This document shows positions 912 to 13,670 of a DNA stretch of 13,687 bases, in pieces. Every line of letters starts with the position of its first letter. The first letter of the stretch is position 1. Both the position numbers and the translations under genes were made by a program. This DNA comes from an uncultured archaeon (lineage in GTDB: Archaea; Asgardarchaeota; Heimdallarchaeia; Heimdallarchaeales; Kariarchaeaceae). The DNA is taken from positions 941 through 14,627 of the forward strand of contig CAZYCQ010000069.1 of the NCBI GenBank assembly GCA_964645535.1. Direction: 5' to 3'. The notes below the pieces were generated by a model that was given only the letters and a program-made list of their open reading frames with translations, did no database searches and was not told where the DNA came from.

Positions 912-1667
912 CTAATTCCTGAAATATTTAACCTTGACCTTGCCGAAGCCCATTGCCCTTTTGCCTCCGATGCCCCAATGCTCCATGGTCTGGACAAGTC
1001 GATTGAGATGTTCGAGTCCGTCATTTTCCTCCACGACGAACTTCAGGTAGCCCATGGTTGCAAACACCTTTGCGGTCTTGGTGAGGCTCACTTTGGCGGA
1101 CTTTATTTCGAAATTTGTAATTGCAACCTGCTTTTCGATCCTCTGCGGAAGATCCTCATCGAGTGCCTCACCAGTTAGCATCTCATAGGTTTTTTGTGTG
1201 GTGTACCAAAGCTTTTGAAGGTTGAGGAACGGGTCTACTTTGCGCTTGCGATTGGGATCGGGAAAGATGGCAGGCGTCTGGAACCTGAGGGCGAACCCGG
1301 ATCCAACTTTCGGAGGTTCTGCAGGAACGGGATTTACCTTGCTGAACTGTACCTGATAGACCGGGAATTCATTTTTCACAAGTTTGATGGTACCATAGTC
1401 ATCCTCCACAATGATTCTGAGGATGGTCTGGGAAAGTTCCTCGTCAGTGGTGGCAACGCCTATGGTCGCTCCGTTGGAAATCTTGGTGAAAGGGAATATT
1501 GAATAGGGTCTTTGATGGTTTCCCTCATGCAACTTTTCCCATAGGTTGGGATTTTTCTGCTTGAGATAGGTGAGCAAGGCCCCCTGTGACACCTTTCCGG
1601 TGAACCCCCCGATGCTGAAGTCGCGGGGAACGTCAATGAAGAACTGAAAACGCTGGATGAACTTCAA
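912..1667 (-). CDS. cas6: CRISPR RNA processing endoribonuclease Cas6
   Basis: 251 aa. C-terminal Gly-rich loop WGIGGKRAMGFGKV, plus RPYSI and LRFQTP RAMP motifs. The TTG start overlaps the cas3 stop (TTGA), with AGGAGG upstream. Confidence 0.93.
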   Translation of the reverse strand: MKFIQRFQFFIDVPRDFSIGGFTGKVSQGALLTYLKQKNPNLWEKLHEGNHQRPYSIFPFTKISNGATIGVATTDEELSQTILRIIVEDDYGTIKLVKNEFPVYQVQFSKVNPVPAEPPKVGSGFALRFQTPAIFPDPNRKRKVDPFLNLQKLWYTTQKTYEMLTGEALDEDLPQRIEKQVAITNFEIKSAKVSLTKTAKVFATMGYLKFVVEENDGLEHLNRLVQTMEHWGIGGKRAMGFGKVKVKYFRN

Positions 1668-4279
1668 CGAACTTCCTCCTCTTCTGTGGTTTTAAGGATT
1701 AGCCCGAATTCATAGGAATAATCATGCTTTTTGCAGTTGAGCAGCAAAGGGGGATTACGGATCCTCGGTTGACCTGGAGGGCTGACAATGTCATCCTTTT
1801 TGACGTAGGCTGGAATGAGCAGGTCGGCTGCCTTGAGGGATCCTTGCCTAGTGTACTTGGCATAGTCCTCCCAATCTGTTTCCAGCAGGACATCGACAGT
1901 GGTTCTTTCCCTATTTTCAATGATTTGATCGATCCAAGGTCTATAGGTTCCCGGAAGAATGACATCCTTGAAATTGGCTATTCTGTTATGGTTGATGGCA
2001 TTGTTGAAGGTAGTCTCACCTGTTTTCTTCCAGAAATCCTCATCATAAAGTTCGTTTATGAGATCGATCAGGTCGCCTTCGGTGAGTTCCCTTTCATCTA
2101 GCCTTTTGAGGAGTTCCTTGGATCTGCTGAGAAGTTCATTGTCATAGACAAGATGTGCGAATTTCCCTTGGTGTGCGATATGTACGTTGGTTTTTTGCAA
2201 AGGTCTTTTACCCGCCCGGTTAATTCTACCTAGACGCTGGACAAGTGCGTCCAAAGGTGCAAGTGCTATAATTCCCAATTCATAATCAATGTCGAGGCTT
2301 ACCTCCACCACCTGGGTGGCAACCAGTACTTTACCGTTTGAGGGTTCGTCTATGATTTTTTTCTCCTTTTGCTGTCTGTCACCGTATTTGAACCTTGAAT
2401 GCAGAAGAAGTGCATCTTTGTTTGGGAACAGCTCTTTTACGATTCTGTATGCATTCTGTGCATCACGGACAGTGTTGCAGATTATAAGGGTACTTTCAGC
2501 CCTTTCAATTTCTGCTGAAAGTTTCTTAATGAGGTTTTGCACAGTTTCCTCATGGATCTTGATCTTATGTCGTATCCGTTCCAGAAATTCTTTGTCTGCT
2601 TGGTCATTTTCATCGGGAGAAATATATGGGATGTGCTCGCCGAAATGTTTGTAAATAAGATTTTTGAGCAAGTCCGGAAAGGTTGCCGACATGAAGAGCA
2701 CTTTGGCGTCAAATTGTTCGGTTAGGGTTTTTGCGAGGTTAAGGATCAGTCCGGTCAGGTTACTGTCATACGAGTGGATCTCATCGAAAACCACAAGACA
2801 TTTCGTAAAGTCACAGACCATTGGCTCCCATCCTTGACCCTGCATAAGCACCTTGAGCAATTGATGGGGTGTGGTGACCTTGATCGGATAGAAAATTTCC
2901 TGTGCAAGCCTTGCCATGTCCCTTGCTGCATAGGAGATGATGTGATCCACCTTTCTGCCGTGAAGGGTCTTCCAGTTGGGACTGTCCAAAACAAATGATG
3001 AAAAGGTTTCCGGATCGACATTCTCAATGGTTGTGGGCGGTTCATTGACCTGTTTTTCCAAGGATCGGATTTTTTCCTTTTTTGTCGTTTCAGGGTCAAT
3101 GGTGGTCATGTCCTCCTCCAACAGATGGAAATAGACATTTGCTGCTCGTGAATGGTGAAGTGCCACTACTCGGTAGCCCTTGTCCAGTTCGAGAAATTTG
3201 GACCATCTTTTGTACATGGCATTGATGGATGCCTGAACAGGTAACACGTAAAAGATGCGGGAGAGTCCCACTTCATTTTTTTGGTTACATGTCAGCCAGT
3301 TGAAGGCGGCCTCTGTCTTTCCAGATCCGGTCGGTGCACGCAACATCACTGTTCCAAACTGACCAACCTTTTCTTGAAAGGGTCTAAGGGAGTATTGTTC
3401 CGGAACTATTCTGTACTTGCTGAGATCGGGTGTGGGTGGTACAAAGTTGTTGTTTCCGCTGGAGAGGTGGTCCCCAACCGTGACAAGGGATCTTACCAAG
3501 CTGACGAAGAACCGATCAAACCCCTGCGGGAAATTGTCCTCGACAACTCCTCTTCCATATTTATGGTTTGGCAATCTTCTTTCAGTTCCTTTTTCAATTA
3601 CTGTTAGTTCTCCTTCTACGAACTTACGGAAGCATTCCACGTTCTCGGGAAGGTCTATGCATTCCGGCAGCCACTTTTCTTCCAGAAGCTGATTTGCCCA
3701 TTCATCCTCTTTCAAAATATTGACGATACGTTTCCAATCACTTTGGAGTAGTTCCTTGTTGCAGACCAGTTCATTCCACATGATCTTGAATTGCCCGTAT
3801 GTAGGCCACTGATTCTCTGGAATTGATTTCGGCCATGTTGTTCCTTTTTCCCGGTACGGCTTGTGGTGAGTGACTATCGAGAGATAGATGGCAAGGAACA
3901 GTTTGGGATTTTTCCGCAAGGGTGGCAAGGTATGGAAGTTATGCACGAAAATTGCGGCAGACAGGATTTCATGCCTTCTTCCCTCCCAACTGGGATGGTC
4001 TTCAAGCTTTATCATTTCCTGAAAGCCAGCAGCTGCTTTTCCCAAATCGTGTAATAACCCGCCAATGAAGGAGCAACGGTAAACGTCTTCCTTGTGGTTA
4101 GGATCCAACAATATCCTTGTGGCGGCGGTCAATGCGGCAGCGGCAGCCTCAATGGAATGCTGAACAAGGTCTGTTCCACCTCTGTCCTTGCTTTTTGCCA
4201 TCAGGGGTTCTTTTGTTCCCTCTTCAAAGTTGCAGTTTGAATTCGTAACCTCTGGTTTAAAGATTTCCCCGCCGAACAT
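1664..4279 (-). CDS. cas3: Cas3, fused HD nuclease and SF2 helicase
   Basis: 871 aa. HD-domain motifs: QHS, HDLGKA, RHEILS, THH, GDHLSS. Helicase motifs: APTGSGKT, DEIH, SAT, LLHSRF, ATQVVEVSLDID, QRLGRINR. Confidence 0.97.
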   Translation of the reverse strand: MFGGEIFKPEVTNSNCNFEEGTKEPLMAKSKDRGGTDLVQHSIEAAAAALTAATRILLDPNHKEDVYRCSFIGGLLHDLGKAAAGFQEMIKLEDHPSWEGRRHEILSAAIFVHNFHTLPPLRKNPKLFLAIYLSIVTHHKPYREKGTTWPKSIPENQWPTYGQFKIMWNELVCNKELLQSDWKRIVNILKEDEWANQLLEEKWLPECIDLPENVECFRKFVEGELTVIEKGTERRLPNHKYGRGVVEDNFPQGFDRFFVSLVRSLVTVGDHLSSGNNNFVPPTPDLSKYRIVPEQYSLRPFQEKVGQFGTVMLRAPTGSGKTEAAFNWLTCNQKNEVGLSRIFYVLPVQASINAMYKRWSKFLELDKGYRVVALHHSRAANVYFHLLEEDMTTIDPETTKKEKIRSLEKQVNEPPTTIENVDPETFSSFVLDSPNWKTLHGRKVDHIISYAARDMARLAQEIFYPIKVTTPHQLLKVLMQGQGWEPMVCDFTKCLVVFDEIHSYDSNLTGLILNLAKTLTEQFDAKVLFMSATFPDLLKNLIYKHFGEHIPYISPDENDQADKEFLERIRHKIKIHEETVQNLIKKLSAEIERAESTLIICNTVRDAQNAYRIVKELFPNKDALLLHSRFKYGDRQQKEKKIIDEPSNGKVLVATQVVEVSLDIDYELGIIALAPLDALVQRLGRINRAGKRPLQKTNVHIAHQGKFAHLVYDNELLSRSKELLKRLDERELTEGDLIDLINELYDEDFWKKTGETTFNNAINHNRIANFKDVILPGTYRPWIDQIIENRERTTVDVLLETDWEDYAKYTRQGSLKAADLLIPAYVKKDDIVSPPGQPRIRNPPLLLNCKKHDYSYEFGLILKTTEEEEVR

Positions 4280-4280
4280 C

Positions 4281-4946
4281 TCACTTCCACCTGTGGACGT
4301 AAAACACTCGGTGGCCTAACTCGGGAAGACAATACAGGTCGGGGAACTGTACCTCTTGTTCCTCTTGGGGGAGTGCCAAAAAGGTGCGGATGTTCTGGGG
4401 TCTCCGAACCCTACCTTCCTGATAATCAAAATGTTCGGGCAGGTTATGAATCATGCCATTTGCCGGCAATGGCTGACCTAGCTCAATCGGAAGCAAAGTC
4501 CCGCGCAACTTGCCCTTTTCCACTGGAACTGCATCAGTAACCTTGAGTTCCTCCACAGCAACTAGGTCTTGTGACCTTCCCAAGAATAGGGGTCTTCGCG
4601 GTCGGTCGACAATTTCCTTGAACTCAAGATTCGTGAGGACGAGCTCCAATTCCGGGAAGATATGCATCTCTCTCTTCCTGATATTGGTCTTATTGTAGCC
4701 GTACCTACCGCTGTCGTTTCGTTTCCATCTATGGAACTTTTCTAGATCGCGGGAGATTCCCTGGTACGTATATCTCATTCCAATTCGTGTTTGATCCGGG
4801 GTAATTTCTTCATCCTTTGCCGAGGTGAGCATGCCTAGGATTGTACTATATGGGGGGACTGTCAGCGAGAGCTGGTCACCGGAAATGGTATAGGCAATCC
4901 TGAAAGATGCGCTGATTCCTGTCAGCCTCGCATAGACAACCTTCAT
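4281..4946 (-). CDS. cas5: Cas5 (Cas5b/Cas5t-like)
   Basis: 221 aa. N-terminal ASFR...VPPYSTILGML and LFLGRSQDL motifs. Lies between cas7 and cas3, with a GGGGAG RBS. Confidence 0.93.
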   Translation of the reverse strand: MKVVYARLTGISASFRIAYTISGDQLSLTVPPYSTILGMLTSAKDEEITPDQTRIGMRYTYQGISRDLEKFHRWKRNDSGRYGYNKTNIRKREMHIFPELELVLTNLEFKEIVDRPRRPLFLGRSQDLVAVEELKVTDAVPVEKGKLRGTLLPIELGQPLPANGMIHNLPEHFDYQEGRVRRPQNIRTFLALPQEEQEVQFPDLYCLPELGHRVFYVHRWK

Positions 4947-4956
4947 GCAATCTCCC

Positions 4957-6051
4957 CTAGTTCAATGCAGCCGCCAGCTTTTCAGCGACCTGAATTGGCG
5001 TGTCAACTACCACTTCAACTCCTTCAACCTCTGAGAGGTCTCTGACTTCCTCTTCATTGCCGAGGTAACCACTCAGCATTCCAATGTAGAATGGGGTGGT
5101 AAACCTGTCTTTATAGTCCTTAATAAGTTCTTTAAGGCCCTGCATGTTAAGTACCGGCTTTCCGTCCTTGTTGCCGATGAGGTGCTCAAACGGAACAATT
5201 CCTACAGTCATTCCCGCAACCAAAATTAGTGACGGGTTTAGGCTGGTTCCAAACTGAGCCATCTTCGCCCCTCCATTCAGTCTTGCAATTGACTTGATCA
5301 AGGCACCGGCAACCTCTGTTTGATAGTCTGTCAGACCGTCTTTACGTTTGACAATTTCCCCATTTCTATAGACTGGGTGATCCAAAACCTCGATCAGGTT
5401 TGAATGCCTCTCCTTCAAGAAGGGATCTAGCTCTTGGGAGACATTTCCCTTCTTTTCAAAAACGCCAAGCCTATAGATTTCCAATGAGAATAGTGCCATG
5501 AGTTCAGCCGCATAAAATTCAGTTGTGTAGGGAAGTGGGGTGTCGTCATTTAGGTGGACAAACCCTTGATCCTCATTCATTGAGATCAATCCGTCTATTC
5601 CTCTCAGAAGGGATGATTTAAAGGTTGATGGACGAACAAGCTGTTCTTCCGGAATGTGATCCCTTTTGATTCTTTCATCCCGAGGATTGACATCCCTTCC
5701 CGATGCAAACATGTATCCGAAAATATCGTCTTCAGGATAGGTGATAGGATCAAGCTGTCCTGCAACTTTGTTTGTGCTTCCGTCATTGTTCCAGCCAATA
5801 GCCTCAATTTCACTCTTTGGCCAGCCCGTCTCCTCAATGAGAGTGTTTCGAAGCCACCTTCTCCAAGCCTGTGAAGAGACATAGGGTACTTTCTTTCCAT
5901 TCTGCCAAAAAGATTTGACAGTAGATGTGTTCTTGTCCTCCCCCGAGCCGAGTCCTGCTCCATTTAGGAACGATCCCGGTGCGTGGATGAGGAATGCGCC
6001 GTTAATATGCGTGGTCTTACGACCAACTATTTCTTTGATGCTTTTTGTCAT
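4957..6051 (-). CDS. cas7: Cas7 backbone subunit (Cst2/DevR-like), canonical copy
   Basis: 364 aa. Motifs FLNGAG, PYVSSQAWRRWLR, DPITYPEDDIFGYM, RPS and GGAK. ATG start with GGAGG. Canonical cas8-cas7-cas5-cas3 position. Confidence 0.93.
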   Translation of the reverse strand: MTKSIKEIVGRKTTHINGAFLIHAPGSFLNGAGLGSGEDKNTSTVKSFWQNGKKVPYVSSQAWRRWLRNTLIEETGWPKSEIEAIGWNNDGSTNKVAGQLDPITYPEDDIFGYMFASGRDVNPRDERIKRDHIPEEQLVRPSTFKSSLLRGIDGLISMNEDQGFVHLNDDTPLPYTTEFYAAELMALFSLEIYRLGVFEKKGNVSQELDPFLKERHSNLIEVLDHPVYRNGEIVKRKDGLTDYQTEVAGALIKSIARLNGGAKMAQFGTSLNPSLILVAGMTVGIVPFEHLIGNKDGKPVLNMQGLKELIKDYKDRFTTPFYIGMLSGYLGNEEEVRDLSEVEGVEVVVDTPIQVAEKLAAALN

Positions 6052-6052
6052 C

Positions 6053-8230
6053 TTATTCCTCCTTTGTTTGGTTTGTTTCAGTCCATATTCTGAACTGATA
6101 GAAGAAAATCCTGAGCTTGAACTTCAGGAGCTTCCAAGAAAAGGTTCGTGACTCGAATCCCGCCTCAAACCAGTCTGCTTCTGGTATCTGTACGGGTTGT
6201 TCGAGTTCAGTACGTAATCTTTCGTTAATCTGGTTAAGCAGGTAATTTGAACTAATTTTCCCCCTCTTCAACCCATCGTCAAACTCCCTGAAAAAGCGGT
6301 CCTTACCTATTTTATTGATTCTGACCTCTGAATATCTTATCAAGGCATTGCAGAGCTGGTCAGACATGCCGCTTGACCGAACCAAGTCTGCAAGATCCTT
6401 GACTTTGGGAAGTGCATGATTCCTTCCAACCTTGTGGCCATTCAAGATGGCCGTTGTCAAAATCCTGAAAAGATACAGGAGCTCCCTTCTAGTGATGCCC
6501 TCTGGAAGTTCTCGAAATTGCTCGTAGGTTAGGCCCTGCATCGTATTCGAGATTGAAAGGTAAAGGTTTCTAATATTGTCTAGGTCATATCGATCCACCT
6601 CTTTCAGAAATTTTTCCTTTTCTGCTCGGTTGTTCAGGTCAATTTTTTTCCTGTAAATGTGGGATTCCATGAGCAGGGCAACCAATTCAATCCTGTTCTG
6701 TAGGTTTTCGGAGATAAACCTCCGTTGGGTGGACACCGGGACTAACTTGCTTTTTGGGTTGCCGTCTTGCTTCGGATGGAAGTAGAACCTGAACAAATTA
6801 ATTGAGTTGTTTCCCCCTTCATGAGGACTTTCAGAAAAAAACAGCTCCAAGATAATTTGGTAATTTATTTCCCCTTCAAATTGAAGCTTTATGGCTTGCG
6901 GAAATATCAAGTCAAGAACATCCTTCGTTTTCCAGTTTGTATAGAACCTACTGATAATCTTCTCTGTCATTCGACTTTTGAGCTCCTCAACGATTACCCT
7001 AACAGCCTTCAGATGGTCAGGCGTCCATCCAAGGAAATACATCTGGTAAAAGTTGTAGAAATCAACATTTGGGGGTTCAACCGTGGATTTGACATAGAAG
7101 CCTTCATAGTCTTCGGCTCTGATGATCCGGTTAAGAAGGAACCTGTCCGGGTGTCTCAATTCTCTTTTCTCATTTTGGACAAATCTTGTGATTTGCTGCT
7201 CTGCATTAAAATCCGCATTCAGACTCAAAAGCCTGAGAAAGTTCAAGGTACGGTCTGGAAGGAAATAGGTTTCACATTCTGACCCATGAGCCGAATTCGT
7301 GAATTGCCAGATGATGAGTGTAGATCCGATTAAATCTTCATTGAATTGACCGAGAATGTCAAGAAGTTTTAGGATCATGTGACTAGGAGGGTCATTCTTC
7401 CCAACTATTTCAATTGTCCTTTCCAAACTTGAAGCACTGAAAACATCCTCAAAGCGATGTAAATTAGACTCGATCAGTTTCTTTGTAATTGCAAAGTTGT
7501 CTGACTGATAAACAACAAGCTTGCCTTGCATTAGATGGGTGATTTGCGGAAGGAAATGAACAAGAAAGAGACATCTTGCGCAAATCATTTGGGGTTCAGA
7601 GAAGGCGGGGAGGGCTTGTGCCTCATTTCCAATGGTTCCAATCAGTGGGAACCAAGATTTGGTAATTCCTTTTCCGAATCTTCTTGTGGGGGTTTCTCCT
7701 GTCCGAACTTCCTCCAACCTGAGTTCAAGCTCATTGAAATCAAAAGTGGTTTCCCTTCCGCAGCTAATGCATCTATGTTCCGAATTTGCCTCCTTGGGTA
7801 TCTGATGAATAAATTCGGCTAGATAAGCCCTGTAAACGTTCCGTTGAAGAGGTGAAGGGCGTCCCCCACTCGGTTTCTTCAGACATTGATTGGTCGTGTT
7901 TGTCCTTCCATAAGCGGGTTGGGTCAAGGGATTGTTCGGAAAGATCATGAAGGAAGACTTTGTTGCAGCATTTCGCTCGGCAAAATCCTTCCCCAAGGTA
8001 TCGCTTCCACCAATTGACCTGAATACGTCGATCAGGTCTCCAAGAGTTGCTTCATGCACTCCTTTGTTTTTGATCACCGAAATGGCAATGAGGCCTGCGT
8101 CCACAAATGGGTTCCCGGAGTAGCCTATCGTCAAGGATCGGTGGTCATTGAGGGCATCCAATCGTTCTCTGATTTGCTCATCAAAAATTTGATCGTTGCA
8201 AAACTCATAATCTGGTATGTCTCCACTCAC
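6053..8230 (-). CDS. cas8: Cas8 large subunit (Cst1-like, CxxC-CxxC type) with long helical C-terminus
   Basis: 725 aa. Motifs GNPFVDAG, FPNNPL, CISC (aa154-157), FPLIG, CARC (aa217-220) and FTNS. The GTG start overlaps the upstream stop (GTGA). Confidence 0.85.
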   Translation of the reverse strand: MSGDIPDYEFCNDQIFDEQIRERLDALNDHRSLTIGYSGNPFVDAGLIAISVIKNKGVHEATLGDLIDVFRSIGGSDTLGKDFAERNAATKSSFMIFPNNPLTQPAYGRTNTTNQCLKKPSGGRPSPLQRNVYRAYLAEFIHQIPKEANSEHRCISCGRETTFDFNELELRLEEVRTGETPTRRFGKGITKSWFPLIGTIGNEAQALPAFSEPQMICARCLFLVHFLPQITHLMQGKLVVYQSDNFAITKKLIESNLHRFEDVFSASSLERTIEIVGKNDPPSHMILKLLDILGQFNEDLIGSTLIIWQFTNSAHGSECETYFLPDRTLNFLRLLSLNADFNAEQQITRFVQNEKRELRHPDRFLLNRIIRAEDYEGFYVKSTVEPPNVDFYNFYQMYFLGWTPDHLKAVRVIVEELKSRMTEKIISRFYTNWKTKDVLDLIFPQAIKLQFEGEINYQIILELFFSESPHEGGNNSINLFRFYFHPKQDGNPKSKLVPVSTQRRFISENLQNRIELVALLMESHIYRKKIDLNNRAEKEKFLKEVDRYDLDNIRNLYLSISNTMQGLTYEQFRELPEGITRRELLYLFRILTTAILNGHKVGRNHALPKVKDLADLVRSSGMSDQLCNALIRYSEVRINKIGKDRFFREFDDGLKRGKISSNYLLNQINERLRTELEQPVQIPEADWFEAGFESRTFSWKLLKFKLRIFFYQFRIWTETNQTKEE

Positions 8231-9234
8231 AGGACTCCCTCCAAAAATCCCAAAAGTTCGTTCTTTATAAGACCTGGACTTGTCACCATTATTTTGACTG
8301 GTTCCAACTTGGTTTGTTCTTCCTGCATTTTCTTAAGGCTTTCTGTATCAATAATTGGAGTTCCTGATCTATACCCCAAAAAAACTGGACTTTTGAAAGT
8401 ATGGCCCCTTTCGGAAACAAGAGCAATAAACTTCTGCACGTCCAGACCAACACTGCCTTCACCAAAAAAAAGGGAGGGGCCAAAAGGTGCCACTCCATCA
8501 GAGACGGTGCATAATAGCAATTTGGGACTGAAATCAACCAAAAACTGGCTTGCCTTCGGGGGATAGGTCAGTCCCATAATCGAATCGAACAGGATATCCA
8601 CCGCATCCTTCACCCGTTCCACCCGATTGGTAACCATAAACTTTCCTGGACCCACCTCTGAAATCTTTGTCTTATTTTTCTTAAGCAGCTCCTCTGGCAT
8701 CTCAATTATGTCTCCCCAATTCCTGAATGTCCCAATCCTGTCTAGATCCAACACCATATTTCCCAAAAACCAACCCGAAGAGAATTGAGTGGAGTAAGGA
8801 AGTGGGGTATCATCTTCAAGGTGAAGGAATCCTTTTTCCGTTGAGATGTTACTCTCCAACGACACCAAGTTTGTAAGAAGGAGTGGGGCAACCCTGTTGG
8901 CACTGGCCACCCGAAACCTAAGGGGATCATCCTGCTCTGGAGGATTTCTGAAGGGATGGCTGTATCCGAAAATATCATCCTCTAGAAAGGTTATTGGGTC
9001 TAGCACATTGGTTCCTCTTCCATTGAGCCTGTCGTAATAGGAGGGTTCATCCCTCAAAAATGCAAAGGTATCTCTTAGAAGCTTCTTCCATGATTGAACA
9101 GACATGTATGGAAATTGACTTCCCTTGTATACAAATCGTTTGATTTCTGTTACAGGATAATTTCCCGCAGAGGTTCCCGACCCATTCAAGAACCCCCCTT
9201 GCAGGTTGTACAAGACTGTGCAACTCAGTATCAC
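8227..9234 (-). CDS. cas7: Second, diverged Cas7 paralogue (cas7b), about 335 aa
   Basis: Colinear with 4957..6051: FLNGSG, PYMSVQSWKKLLR, LDPITFLEDDIFGY, GFLHLEDDTPLPYSTQF. Start moved from the track TTG at 9321 to GTG at 9234, because homology begins there and it is preceded by AGGGAG-tatt (cas8 has GGGAG-tcct-GTG). Confidence 0.88.
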   Translation of the reverse strand: MILSCTVLYNLQGGFLNGSGTSAGNYPVTEIKRFVYKGSQFPYMSVQSWKKLLRDTFAFLRDEPSYYDRLNGRGTNVLDPITFLEDDIFGYSHPFRNPPEQDDPLRFRVASANRVAPLLLTNLVSLESNISTEKGFLHLEDDTPLPYSTQFSSGWFLGNMVLDLDRIGTFRNWGDIIEMPEELLKKNKTKISEVGPGKFMVTNRVERVKDAVDILFDSIMGLTYPPKASQFLVDFSPKLLLCTVSDGVAPFGPSLFFGEGSVGLDVQKFIALVSERGHTFKSPVFLGYRSGTPIIDTESLKKMQEEQTKLEPVKIMVTSPGLIKNELLGFLEGVL

Positions 9235-9378
9235 AATACTCCCTGAAATGGGTTGGAAGGCATCCAATTTAAGGTTTTTGCAGACCGGCTTGAAAGTGAA
9301 GCCGAAGGAAACGTGAAACAAAAAATTTTTTTAGTTGAGATGAGTAGAACATTGTAACCACTTTTGTGGGGGGATGGA
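9235..9378. promoter_or_regulatory. Divergent promoter region between the interference and adaptation operons
   Basis: It is the only gap between divergently oriented operons. Contains an A6T7 tract (9320-9332) and inverted repeats at 9253-9267 and 9286-9304. Promoter elements cannot be placed exactly. Confidence 0.6.
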
Positions 9379-10287
9379 ATGGAAAAATTCGTCAAGACAC
9401 TACGAGGATATTCCTATTTTGTTGAAAAATCCAACCTCAAGCTTGTCCTCTGGCTTGAAACATTTTGGGGAGCATACAGGCCGGTAGATGCTCTCTCAAT
9501 CAAAAGGATCGAGGTTGGTGAATATATCTGCAAGGTCTGCAACAACTATTCGGATCACCTTGAGCAAGGTTATTGCCAAGATTGCTTTCAAACTGATGAA
9601 ACTCATCAGATTTGGTTGAACTGCCTATACAACAGACCAGATTCCTTCATCAACACCATTGGATGCTCAAAAAAAGACCCTTCCTGCGGTATTCCTGAAC
9701 ATGTCCCTAAATGCTTCACTCGTTATCTCCTTTATTTGGGACGTATAGGCGACATCATCAAGGTCGGCATCACCCGTAAAAACAGACTCGGTGGCCTCTG
9801 GGGAAGATTCATTGAGCAGGGGCTGAATGAGGCATTGGTTGTGGACTCCCTCGAAAACCTTCCTGTAGCCAGTGATGCAGAAAGGTGGTTTAAGGAACTG
9901 GGGTTCGGAGATTCAATACGATACGCTGAAAAAGTCGAACAACTTTCTCGACAGGGAAAACCATTGGAAATCGGAAACCTAATCCCTGTTGCATTTGAGA
10001 ATGGCCTCTCCACTTCGTTGTTCGATACTGGACTGTATGTTCCTCGACTGCTTGACAGCTTTCCACTTCACCTATGGAATGAGCGGTTTCCCAACAGCGA
10101 TCTGAAACATCTCCTTGTCTTTCCAGATGCTGGCTTCCCGGATCTTGACCTTTCCGAATTTTCAGTTCGGGGAAAAATTGTTTGGTTTCAGGGATCCATG
10201 CTCGTCTCCTCCCTTAAAGGCAGAAATTACATCACAAACATGGAAGACCTTCTCCATCGCGAAATCATTGACTTTAGGAGGTTCTAA
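9379..10287 (+). CDS. DUF2797-like protein: Cys-rich Zn-binding region plus GIY-YIG-like putative nuclease core, about 302 aa
   Basis: CKVC..QGYCQDCF..C..C..C..C followed by YLLYL..IKVGITR..RFIEQG..ALVV..AE, and C-terminal GKIVWFQGSMLV, match my recollection of the DUF2797 pattern. ATG at 9379 follows GGGGGGA and is preferred over the track TTG at 9364. Confidence 0.75.
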   Translation: MEKFVKTLRGYSYFVEKSNLKLVLWLETFWGAYRPVDALSIKRIEVGEYICKVCNNYSDHLEQGYCQDCFQTDETHQIWLNCLYNRPDSFINTIGCSKKDPSCGIPEHVPKCFTRYLLYLGRIGDIIKVGITRKNRLGGLWGRFIEQGLNEALVVDSLENLPVASDAERWFKELGFGDSIRYAEKVEQLSRQGKPLEIGNLIPVAFENGLSTSLFDTGLYVPRLLDSFPLHLWNERFPNSDLKHLLVFPDAGFPDLDLSEFSVRGKIVWFQGSMLVSSLKGRNYITNMEDLLHREIIDFRRF

Positions 10288-10289
10288 AA

Positions 10290-11297
10290 CTGGTTACCAT
10301 AATCATCACAGAAATTGGTTCAAAGTTGCAAATCAAGAAAAACCGATTCTTGATCACCCATGGTTTTTCAAAAAAACCTGTTTCCGAAATCCCAATCGAC
10401 ATTGTTGATCAGATAATTTCGGAAACCAGTTGTACGATCACAGGACAGGCCATGGCTGCCCTTTCCACTCACGCCATCCCCTTTGTGTGGGTTGGTCCTG
10501 AGAACAGACCGCTCTACATCCTTCCTTCCTATCAAAACGGATTGGCTGCCCTTCGCAGACGACAATACGAGGCCCTGGACAATAACAAAGGGTTGCATAT
10601 CGCCCAGCAGATCGTCCTGAAAAACATAAAGAACAGGATAACCTCTCTGTCGAAATGGGAGAGGCAATATTCCATAGGACTTCAAGCTCATATCACGCAA
10701 ATAAAGAGCTTCCTCAAAAAGCCTCCCGAACTCAAATCTCCACTGGAGGAATGCAGAAACCAATTGATGGCGTTCGAAGCCAAGGCTGCAAAGGAGTACT
10801 GGCAAGGTTTTGCACTGGTTGCTGAGTTTCATTACTGGCCATTCAAGGGACGCACCAAGCGTCCGGCAAAGGATGGTACAAATTCACTGCTCAATTACGG
10901 CTATGCAATCCTTGAAGGCCAGGTCCTAGCTGCCGTGACCATCACAGGATTGGATATCTATGCGGGGTTTCTCCATGCAGATCGATCCGGACGCACTTCG
11001 CTTCTTCAGGATATCAAAGAGGAGTTTCGACAGGTTCTGGTTGATGAGGCATTGGTACAACTCATGTCACAAATTCCGTACGATGCAACCCAATTTGAAA
11101 AGGAAGGATCTGATATTCGCATTGGTGCTGAAATTAAAAAACAATGGGTCCAGCTTCTTTTCTCGAGACTAGACCTAGAGTTCGGACAACACACCCTTCG
11201 TCGACATATTGTCCTGCAGGGTAGAAAACTCTCCAGTTACCTCATGGGCAAGAGGAAAACCTACACTCCATTTTCTAATAAGGTGAAATTTCCATGA
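10290..11297 (+). CDS. cas1: Cas1 integrase (probable CTG start at 10290; track start 10326)
   Basis: Motifs FEAKAAKEYW, NSLLNYGYAIL, GFLH and DIKEEFR. The frame extends upstream as (M)VTIIITEIGSKLQIKKNRFLI, a typical Cas1 first strand. AGGAGG at 10276-10281. Confidence 0.95.
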   Translation: MVTIIITEIGSKLQIKKNRFLITHGFSKKPVSEIPIDIVDQIISETSCTITGQAMAALSTHAIPFVWVGPENRPLYILPSYQNGLAALRRRQYEALDNNKGLHIAQQIVLKNIKNRITSLSKWERQYSIGLQAHITQIKSFLKKPPELKSPLEECRNQLMAFEAKAAKEYWQGFALVAEFHYWPFKGRTKRPAKDGTNSLLNYGYAILEGQVLAAVTITGLDIYAGFLHADRSGRTSLLQDIKEEFRQVLVDEALVQLMSQIPYDATQFEKEGSDIRIGAEIKKQWVQLLFSRLDLEFGQHTLRRHIVLQGRKLSSYLMGKRKTYTPFSNKVKFP

Positions 11298-11653
11298 AGC
11301 TACAAGTAATCTCCTATGACATCCCCGACGATAGTATCAGGCAAAAGGTTGCTGAGGTTCTGAAAAATTATGGCCTTATCAGAATTCAATACTCCGTCTT
11401 CAATGGATTGTTGCCGAAGGCAAAGATGAAAGACCTTTTTCGTGAACTAGAGGATATTCTCAGAGATGACGTGGGCGATATCGCAGTTTTCGAACTGTGT
11501 GAATCCTGCCAAAAACATACGACTACAATTTACTCCGTTCCGGATGAGCAGCCCCCTGAAAAAGAGGAGCCTACCAAACCAGAAAATCCAAAAAAGAGAA
11601 CTGCCAAGAAGGAAGATCCACCAGAAAAAGGAAAGGGGGTGCTGATTTTCTGA
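11294..11653 (+). CDS. cas2: Cas2 with a charged, Pro-rich C-terminal extension
   Basis: Motifs VISYDIPDD, LKNYGLIRIQYSVF and LCESC. ATGA overlap with the cas1 stop; AGGTGA RBS. Confidence 0.95.
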   Translation: MKLQVISYDIPDDSIRQKVAEVLKNYGLIRIQYSVFNGLLPKAKMKDLFRELEDILRDDVGDIAVFELCESCQKHTTTIYSVPDEQPPEKEEPTKPENPKKRTAKKEDPPEKGKGVLIF

Positions 11654-12195
11654 GGGTTTTTGCCGAAGAGCTGCGTCAGTTCATTTATTGCCCGCGCATC
11701 CCTTTCCTCCGGTTAAATTTCGGTTACCGGGGAACCACCTACAGCATGAAAAAAGGATCTACCTACCACGCGAAAAAGGCAGCAAGAAACTACGGTTTCA
11801 AGAACTGCGAGACATACTATCAACTTTATGTCGAATCAAAAAAACATGATATCGTATCCGTTCCCGATGTCATTTTAAAATTTCATGACTACATTGTCAT
11901 CCTGGAAAACAAAAGGTTCATCCAAGGCAGGCCACCGTTTTCTGTCATCGCCCAAGCGGTAGCTGGTGGAATCTGTGCAGAAGAACATTTCAACCTACCT
12001 CTCCGTGAAGTCCGAGTGGTTGGCTTCAATGGTGCCACCACAAAAATCCTCGTCACCCAAAGGTTAAGGGATCAAGTCCTCCAAGCTATTGGCCGACTCA
12101 AGGCAACCCTACGTGAATTGGAGGCTCCAGATCCAACACCTGACACAGGAAAATGTGACGCTTGTGAATATCGCAATGTTTGTGGAACAATTTAA
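11650..12195 (+). CDS. cas4: Cas4 nuclease (probable CTG start at 11650; track start 11746), about 181 aa
   Basis: The in-frame upstream sequence RVFAEELRQFIYCPR supplies the first Fe-S cysteine. RecB-like PDV..LENK motif; C-terminal CDACEYRNVC. Confidence 0.92.
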   Translation: MRVFAEELRQFIYCPRIPFLRLNFGYRGTTYSMKKGSTYHAKKAARNYGFKNCETYYQLYVESKKHDIVSVPDVILKFHDYIVILENKRFIQGRPPFSVIAQAVAGGICAEEHFNLPLREVRVVGFNGATTKILVTQRLRDQVLQAIGRLKATLRELEAPDPTPDTGKCDACEYRNVCGTI

Positions 12196-12675: not shown

Positions 12676-13670
12676 GTCTCATTGACTGAGAATCCTAGTA
12701 ATAGGTTGAAACTGACAAGATCAACGGGAATGAAATTATCATCAGAATCGTCTCATTGACTGAGAATCCTAGTAATAGGTTGAAACGATCCATATCAGAT
12801 AATATTCATATCAGCAAGAAGATGTCTCATTGACTGAGAATCCTAGTAATAGGTTGAAACTACTGCAAGACGTGCAGATCGCACAGCAGGCCGAGCTGTC
12901 TCATTGACTGAGAATCCTAGTAATAGGTTGAAACTGCCGTGATGGATGTGTCTGTGGCATACTTGATACTCGTCTCATTGACTGAGAATCCTAGTAATAG
13001 GTTGAAACGTTATCAAAAGTAATATAATCCCTTCTTTGTTCTATAGTCTCATTGACTGAGAATCCTAGTAATAGGTTGAAACGTATGAGATGCCTCCCCA
13101 TTCCTTTGCAAGGGTTCTGTCTCATTGACTGAGAATCCTAGTAATAGGTTGAAACGTAATTCAGGCAATCGAAAGAAGCGTTTCAATGAAAGGTCTCATT
13201 GACTGAGAATCCTAGTAATAGGTTGAAACCTATGAAGCATGGCCAGCATATCCTGCGGCACGTTCGTCTCATTGACTGAGAATCCTAGTAATAGGTTGAA
13301 ACCTACTGATCCAGAAGAAGGTGACATGATCCATTTTCTTGTCTCATTGACTGAGAATCCTAGTAATAGGTTGAAACCCTCTTGTGATGACGGTTATGCT
13401 GGTGTATGCCTCCAGTCTCATTGACTGAGAATCCTAGTAATAGGTTGAAACATCCTGATCCGCCTTGCTGAGTCCCTTGCTTTCAAGTCTCATTGACTGA
13501 GAATCCTAGTAATAGGTTGAAACTATCATCTGAAACTGGAGAATACCAATAATCAGCAGTCTCATTGACTGAGAATCCTAGTAATAGGTTGAAACGTTCT
13601 TTGTTCATGTTAACACCTACACAACATTATGTTGTCTCATTGACTGAGAATCCTAGTAATAGGTTGAAAC
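12676..13670 (+). CRISPR. CRISPR array 2 (leader end): 14 identical 37-bp repeats, 13 complete spacers of 35-38 bp; probably continues beyond the right edge
   Basis: Repeat GTCTCATTGACTGAGAATCCTAGTAATAGGTTGAAAC starts at 12676, 12750, 12824, 12898, 12972, 13046, 13119, 13193, 13266, 13341, 13415, 13487, 13559 and 13634. Confidence 0.99.

Follow-up and report, generated by a model that had tools for sequence, protein, structure and literature searches.

To our knowledge, the Cascade complexes (CRISPR-associated complexes for antiviral defence) of type I CRISPR systems have been described with one Cas7 gene and a uniform backbone, Cas7 paralogues being a hallmark of type III. The solved subtype I-B Cascade contains seven identical Cas7 subunits and three Cas11 subunits made from an internal start (PMC11096372). 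Type III complexes combine a repeated Cas7 with position-specific Cas7-family subunits, as in Csm3 with Csm5 or Cmr4 with Cmr6 and Cmr1 (PMC3973734, PMC5965380). Here we describe a complete CRISPR-Cas locus on a 13,687-nucleotide (nt) stretch of contig CAZYCQ010000069.1 from an uncultured archaeon of the Asgardarchaeota (the whole stretch is called the window in the following), the effector operon of which is headed by a diverged yet conserved second cas7 gene. This upstream paralogue (8227-9234, minus strand) is referred to as Cas7-2 and the ordinary Cas7 (4957-6051, minus strand) as Cas7-1; a first-pass annotation of the window had called the former cas7b, a term which in standard nomenclature denotes any subtype I-B Cas7. 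The locus represents a real, conserved and apparently undescribed variant of subtype I-B.

With I-B loci of the Cst2/DevR (Tneap-like) kind the locus shares a TIGR02585 Cas7, Cas5b, Cas8b, Cas3, Cas6 and cas1-cas2-cas4, as well as a repeat ending in TTGAAAC and spacers of 35-39 nt. A Cas3 with HD nuclease and superfamily 2 helicase places it in type I; Cas8b, I-B-type Cas7 and Cas5, a Cas6 and cas1, cas2 and cas4, all recognised by profiles and PADLOC, place it in subtype I-B, from which it departs in having two cas7 genes instead of one, here and on 14 further contigs. Nearest to it are loci of the order cas8-cas7-cas5-cas3, as yet without a name, in Bathyarchaeia, Nitrososphaeria, Bacteroidota and Acidobacteriota. 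In contrast to the remodelled second cas7 found here upstream of cas8, a single cas7 is present in each of 132 related loci of other archaeal, bacterial or metagenomic origin, a set of best-scoring matches only and hence a sample; in 93 of them (64 clusters at 90%) more than 1.5 kb upstream of cas8 is available without a second copy. In sequence as well as in fold, the two Cas7 proteins and Cas8 are best matched by the solved I-B Cascades 8H67 (Synechocystis PCC 6714, PMC11096372) and 8FCJ, the latter from an I-B CRISPR-associated transposon (CAST). The subunit set is the same, but here Cas7 is encoded twice and Cas8 carries a pair of C-terminal repeats, no conserved internal start having been found in it. 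Unlike in I-B CAST (I-B2) systems, cas3 is intact in all complete loci and no tns or tniQ occurs among the called genes. The principle of a repeated Cas7 plus a position-specific paralogue resembles type III, from which the locus differs in lacking Cas10 and any Csm/Cmr homologue, in its Cas8b large subunit and in its target, presumably DNA via Cas3. Hereby, Cas7-2 shows no match to Csm/Cmr profiles; it is a recent-family paralogue of I-B Cas7 and of independent origin from the type III caps. The text of the 2025 classification (PMC12669027), as far as it was available, mentions no type I system that carries a second cas7 gene, and none was found in PMC13700489, PMC8813620, PMC13477220, literature searches and Asgard defence papers, a scope outside which figures and subscription papers lie. 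In this literature the arrangement was thus not found as an already described subtype variant, the outcome that the first-pass annotation had allowed for.

The open reading frame of cas7-2 is intact and encodes 335 amino acids (aa) from a GTG start. As proposed in the first-pass annotation, the protein aligns with the canonical Cas7-1 (29% identity across 314 columns, E=3e-32), and the motif pairs and the two patches of DNA similarity quoted there are present (families D2 and D3). The profile search suggested there places both proteins above the curated cut-off of TIGR02585 (Cas7/Cst2/DevR; 72.75 bits), Cas7-2 with 73.7 and Cas7-1 with 106.2 bits; TIGR02585 is matched by 25 of 25 Cas7-2 members, and the PADLOC I-B Cas7 profile by both Cas7-1 and Cas7-2. 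An AlphaFold2 model of Cas7-2 (predicted local distance difference test score 82, predicted template modelling score 0.84) has the full type I Cas7 fold and lies nearest to type I Cas7 chains, namely that of I-B 8FCJ (Z=19.2, root-mean-square deviation 4.1, 262 aligned) and also those of I-A and I-E. Profile score, the RNA recognition motif palm with its RNA-binding motifs and the thumb all identify Cas7-2 as a member of the Cas7 (Cst2/DevR) family. Its stop codon overlaps the cas8 start in the 4-nt GTGA noted earlier. The GTG at 9234, previously described as a weak start, is supported as the start codon because a Shine-Dalgarno (SD)-like AGGGAG just upstream (9239-9244, minus strand; found by sequence inspection) is conserved in L210 and L035 and because in a sister species the frame is closed by a stop 8 codons upstream of it. 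Given the SD-like element, the start is not obviously weak. In the public gene call (P0008) the protein begins at an internal ATG (8227-9105, minus strand; 292 aa) and lacks the FLNG motif, and other Cas7-2 members are annotated as hypothetical proteins; such truncated or hypothetical annotation may be the reason why the duplication is missed.

The order cas7-2, cas8, cas7-1 occurs on 15 contigs, the window counted (the others being L035, L021, L022, L023, L025, L034, L200, L202, L203, L204, L208, L237, L238 and L247). It is further found in a frameshifted form on L207, and contig-end breaks in four more assemblies (G001, G016, L206, L210) are compatible with it. Both copies are present in 11 of 400 genomes of the phylum, nine from three families of the window's order and two from outside its class, one of the latter a single-contig genome of 4.36 Mb. 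Wherever contig extent allows a check, cas7-2 adjoins cas8; the gaps between them (-4, -4, -8, -4, +4 and +12 nt) are overlaps or very short distances, which suggests coupled translation. An independent assembly (GCA_003696825.1) contains the same locus with identical protein sequence, and the locus is thus no assembly artefact. So far the double-cas7 variant is limited to Asgard-type genomes. Close relatives are deposited as Candidatus Heimdallarchaeota, which points to an Asgard host. Other Asgard genomes carry single-cas7 I-B systems of other subgroups, for instance G043, the Cas7 of which groups with Nitrososphaeria. No third cas7 copy was found in the host genome, and a single-sequence search of the genome contig collection gave no match. 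Three neighbourhoods were recorded alongside: a type III-like RAMP (repeat-associated mysterious protein) operon that appears to begin divergently beside cas7-2 in G134 (L237:15106-20000), a Csm6/Cas02710-type gene adjoining cas6 (L208:430-1773), and a Nitrososphaerota locus in which the genes are rearranged to cas7-cas5-cas3-cas8 and the single Cas7 branches deeply (L110:2306-8123).

In a mixture-model tree, Cas7-2 forms one clade (support 93/98) and Cas7-1 another (98/97), with the same splits in both. The patristic distances of the two proteins are correlated (r=0.91, Mantel p=1e-4), Cas7-2 branches being 2.6 times longer. The Cas7-2 clade nests among I-B Cas7, and a joint clade of Cas7-1 and Cas7-2 is neither supported nor rejected (approximately unbiased test, p=0.50). 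The cas7-2 gene likely arose by duplication in place, acquisition from a close relative being the conceivable alternative. The ratio of nonsynonymous to synonymous substitution rates (dN/dS) of cas7-2 against a 95%-identical relative (L210) is 0.157 (confidence interval 0.08-0.27), comparable to that of cas1 (0.19); this comparison is quoted since pairwise dS within the genus, where dN/dS ranges from 0.09 to 0.15, is near saturation. The gene is under purifying selection. Mirrored clades, correlated distances and low dN/dS together indicate that cas7-2 is old, co-inherited with its partner and maintained. The first-pass view that a type I operon here maintains a further Cas7 with a specialised role thereby gains support (own clade, 15 contigs, dN/dS of 0.16), and neither uniqueness to one genome nor a dN/dS near 1, either of which would have spoken against it, is observed. 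The divergence of Cas7-2 follows that of Cas8 (70/66% and 64/61%) and not that of Cas7-1 (86% and 83%), which speaks in favour of the mechanism proposed below. A functionless, decaying duplicate would evolve faster than Cas7-1, as Cas7-2 does; nevertheless, decay or an assembly artefact is hardly credible, as the gene is intact in all short-read and complete genomes, retains a dN/dS of 0.16 and has gained new conserved motifs, while independent assemblies contain the same sequence (L209) and order.

To see what distinguishes the paralogues, 14 Cas7-1, 24 Cas7-2 and 24 single-copy sequences were compared (residues in Cas7-1 numbering). Thirty-seven positions are conserved across all three groups. 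Kept are the set gripping the CRISPR RNA (crRNA), i.e. N17, K32, S45, Q47, R54, D86-D87, G90, R114 and K227, the thumb residues H138, T143-Y147 and F151, and the motifs FLNG, the PYxSxQ helix, DDxFGY and TPLPY (thumb); hereby, the thumb is the best-kept part of Cas7-2 (H138 in 24 of 25 and P146 in 25 of 25 sequences). Cas7-2 has lost 26 positions common to Cas7-1 and the single-copy proteins, as opposed to only one in the reverse direction, which identifies Cas7-1 (40-46% to single-copy relatives) as the conservative backbone protein. E38, W77, S80, G91 and M114 are present in none of 25 Cas7-2 proteins, so that the losses affect the loop at the N-terminus, the entry to the fingers and the methionine of the GYM motif; K95, D161 (thumb base), D312, Y313 and Y329 are lost as well. 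In turn, the core Cas7-2 clade has gained YYxR, GY(S/T)HP (GYSHP) and SxNR motifs. The differences singled out in the first-pass annotation proved less telling: the three listed motif changes are present but conservative or genus-specific, and YPPK in place of GGAK, rejected here as a family feature, is confined to the window's genus, most orthologues having GGAK or a close variant. Likewise, Cas7-2 is indeed about 13 residues shorter at the N-terminus, yet mainly because Cas7-1 has been extended there, as single-copy relatives, too, begin near residue 11-15.

Cas7-2 keeps the crRNA grip and the thumb but has lost residues invariant in every self-polymerising relative, which is more in keeping with a position-specific subunit than with a decoy or another backbone. 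An alternative or mixed backbone, with Cas7-2 forming its own filament or interspersed copies and giving two forms of Cascade, e.g. for escape from anti-CRISPR proteins, would agree with the full length and complete fold of Cas7-2, its retained palm and thumb, its faster evolution and its first position in the operon. A self-polymerising protein should, however, keep both faces, whereas the losses are one-sided and concern residues invariant in every homopolymer-forming relative; moreover, no positive selection is seen (dN/dS 0.09-0.16), and each locus has only one cas5, cas8, cas3 and cas6. We regard such a backbone as improbable. A role outside the mature complex, as an assembly chaperone, crRNA carrier, regulator or anti-CRISPR decoy, seems just as doubtful. 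While the low overall conservation of Cas7-2 and its place as first gene of the operon could be taken in its favour, it diverges strictly in step with Cas7-1 and its gene is strictly linked to cas8 across classes, which suggests that it is structurally tied to them in an obligate way. A decoy, in particular, should keep its outer surface and drop its RNA contacts, the opposite of what is found, and no homologue was detected in the viral contigs and phage genomes searched.

Incorporation of Cas7-2 into Cascade, its copy number and its position are inferred here from sequence comparison. On this basis, Cas7-2 is quite probably an end subunit at one or the other end of the filament, and we lean, a little less firmly, towards an Asgard-restricted I-B variant with an obligatory heteromeric backbone in which a dedicated Cas7-2 ends the Cas7-1 filament. 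In the mechanism that we propose, cas7 would have duplicated once, early, in an Asgard lineage of a complete DNA-targeting type I-B system. Cas7-1 would have retained the ancestral sequence and would polymerise along the spacer, while Cas7-2 would have become a structural subunit of low copy number, probably a single one, at one filament end, most likely in the first position, the meeting point of 5' handle, Cas5 thumb and Cas8. Its palm would still grip the crRNA and its normal thumb would be passed to the next Cas7-1, the N-terminal loop and finger entry having been rebuilt for contacts unique to the first subunit.

The assignment of low-copy Cas7-2 to the Cas5/Cas8 end of a heteromeric backbone is tentative; it is favoured because of a mapping onto E. 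coli Cas7, the link to cas8 and a motif in Cas5. In E. coli Cas7 (residues 6-68), the N-terminal loop and the finger start are the weak, motif-based matches of the lost loop and of the W77-K95 segment, and Cas5 of the double-cas7 loci has a thumb with a clade-specific H-R-W/Y/F motif. In E. coli Cascade, the Cas7 that borders Cas5 binds the 5' handle through its web and receives the Cas5 thumb with its fingers (PMC5965380). We infer that this end is more likely than the opposite one, where Cas7-2 would act as a protospacer adjacent motif (PAM)-distal cap like Csm5 or Cmr6/Cmr1, stopping polymerisation at the border of spacer and 3' repeat and linking Cas6 or shielding the crRNA 3' end. For such a cap there is a type III precedent (PMC5965380); the lost M114, K95 and E38 are plausible target or duplex contacts dispensable for a last subunit, D161, D312, Y313 and Y329 could form the face that receives the next subunit, and with 37-nt spacers a seventh Cas7 would lie mostly on repeat-derived RNA (seven Cas7 in I-B, PMC11096372). 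The distal Cas7 of E. coli Cascade, however, differs in its use of the thumb (PMC5965380), which is the very part best kept in Cas7-2; besides, cas7-2 is tied to cas8 whereas the position of cas6 varies, and spacer and repeat lengths resemble those of single-cas7 relatives, so that we consider the cap unlikely. The crRNA ruler suggested in the first-pass annotation finds no support, as spacer medians are 37-38 nt compared to 35-39 nt in single-cas7 systems.

Several observations weigh against the placement at the Cas5/Cas8 end. Mean identity among Cas7-2 proteins is 31%, a low value if the seed were held by this subunit; the profile alignment with E. coli Cas7 is restricted to the N-terminal 70 residues, is statistically weak (E=0.07) and crosses subtypes; the Cas5 motif change is confounded with ancestry, all double loci belonging to one lineage; and the loss of M114, D161, D312, Y313 and Y329 equally fits a duplex-free distal cap. 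It is by motif likeness that M114 is equated with M166 of E. coli, an intercalating residue. Also the start codon, previously read as a sign of low copy number, had to be abandoned as general evidence for it, since the pattern does not generalise: most orthologues begin with ATG (as in L034, L200, L202, L204 and L208), and cas8 has ATG in a close relative. A predicted complex of Cas7-1, Cas5 and Cas7-2 scored 0.87 and a control with Cas7-1 replaced 0.70; these values were not used as evidence.

The large subunit encoded next to cas7-2, cas8b (6053-8230, minus strand; 725 aa, CxxC-CxxC type), is recognised by PADLOC (Cas8b, E=7e-26) and has its best structural match in Cas8 of 8H67 (Z=7.1), along with a weak Cas_CXXC_CXXC profile match. 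Its C-terminal third (6053-6750, minus strand) consists of two tandem helical repeats (repeat-versus-repeat hhalign 94%, E=1e-7), which may be Cas11-like, given where they lie, how large and how helical they are, and that relatives have internal starts; a whole-protein fold search gave no clear match for them. In four of five one-repeat relatives (L060, L098, L103, L114) an SD and a start codon lie just before the repeat, as for an internal Cas11. Before either repeat of the 12 double-cas7 loci no conserved SD and start were found, although archaeal starts may lack an SD. The doubling of the repeat is independent of the cas7 duplication, since loci of Bathyarchaeia, Nitrososphaeria and Bacteroidota with one cas7 likewise encode two-repeat Cas8 proteins.

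The remaining genes of the minus-strand operon follow in the order cas7-1 (364 aa; ATG with GGAGG), cas5b (4281-4946, 221 aa; PADLOC Cas5b, E=5.5e-66), cas3 (1664-4279, 871 aa) and cas6 (912-1667, 251 aa; PF10040 above cut-off). Cas3 scores above cut-off with TIGR01587 (248 bits) and TIGR01596 (64.9 bits), and its catalytic motifs are intact by inspection. The divergent adaptation operon on the plus strand comprises a DUF2797 gene (9379-10287; PF10977, E=6e-11), cas1 (10326-11297, start possibly at 10290; PF01867, TIGR00287), cas2 (11294-11653; PF09827) and cas4 (11650-12195; TIGR00372 above cut-off, start codon uncertain). The DUF2797 gene has a CxxC-CxxC motif, lies directly upstream of cas1 throughout the genus and in G006, and is possibly an ancillary adaptation gene. 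Elsewhere in the host genome (G000), contig C129 carries a separate cas1/cas2/cas4 set with a second DUF2797 gene alongside, and contig C92 a Cas3-like gene with a distant cas1.

Two CRISPR arrays flank the genes, both read on the plus strand. Array 1 (31-804), which extends left past the window, has a 37-nt repeat, spacers of 36-37 nt and a degenerate last repeat; array 2 (12676-13670), preceded by an AT-rich leader, has spacers of 35-38 nt and the array 1 repeat with a one-base difference in its 3' hairpin, the loop of which is of the GNRA type in either array (GAAA versus GUAA). Two short hairpins are predicted for the repeat, no better than for shuffled sequences, and a third array with this repeat lies on contig C33. 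No repeat-like mini-array was found between arrays 1 and 2. Viral contigs contained no exact match to two spacer cores, and spacers did not match the own genome beyond chance, so that no protospacer was found and no PAM was derived.

As a conserved exception among type I systems, the variant would need a name of its own. Asgard defence systems have been counted by automatic tools and rarely examined gene by gene, and gene callers truncate cas7-2 or call it hypothetical. With the effector genes in one operon, heterologous reconstitution is directly feasible, and a backbone position open to separate engineering or tagging would give type I tools a fixed filament end and a single fusion site. The locus would be a natural model for the origin of specialised subunits such as Cas5, Cas7 and Csm5-like proteins by duplication. 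If our reading is true, Cas7 paralogues with fixed positions, as known from type III, would have arisen independently in type I, and recently enough (29% identity, one family) for the path from homopolymer to terminal subunit to be traced residue by residue.

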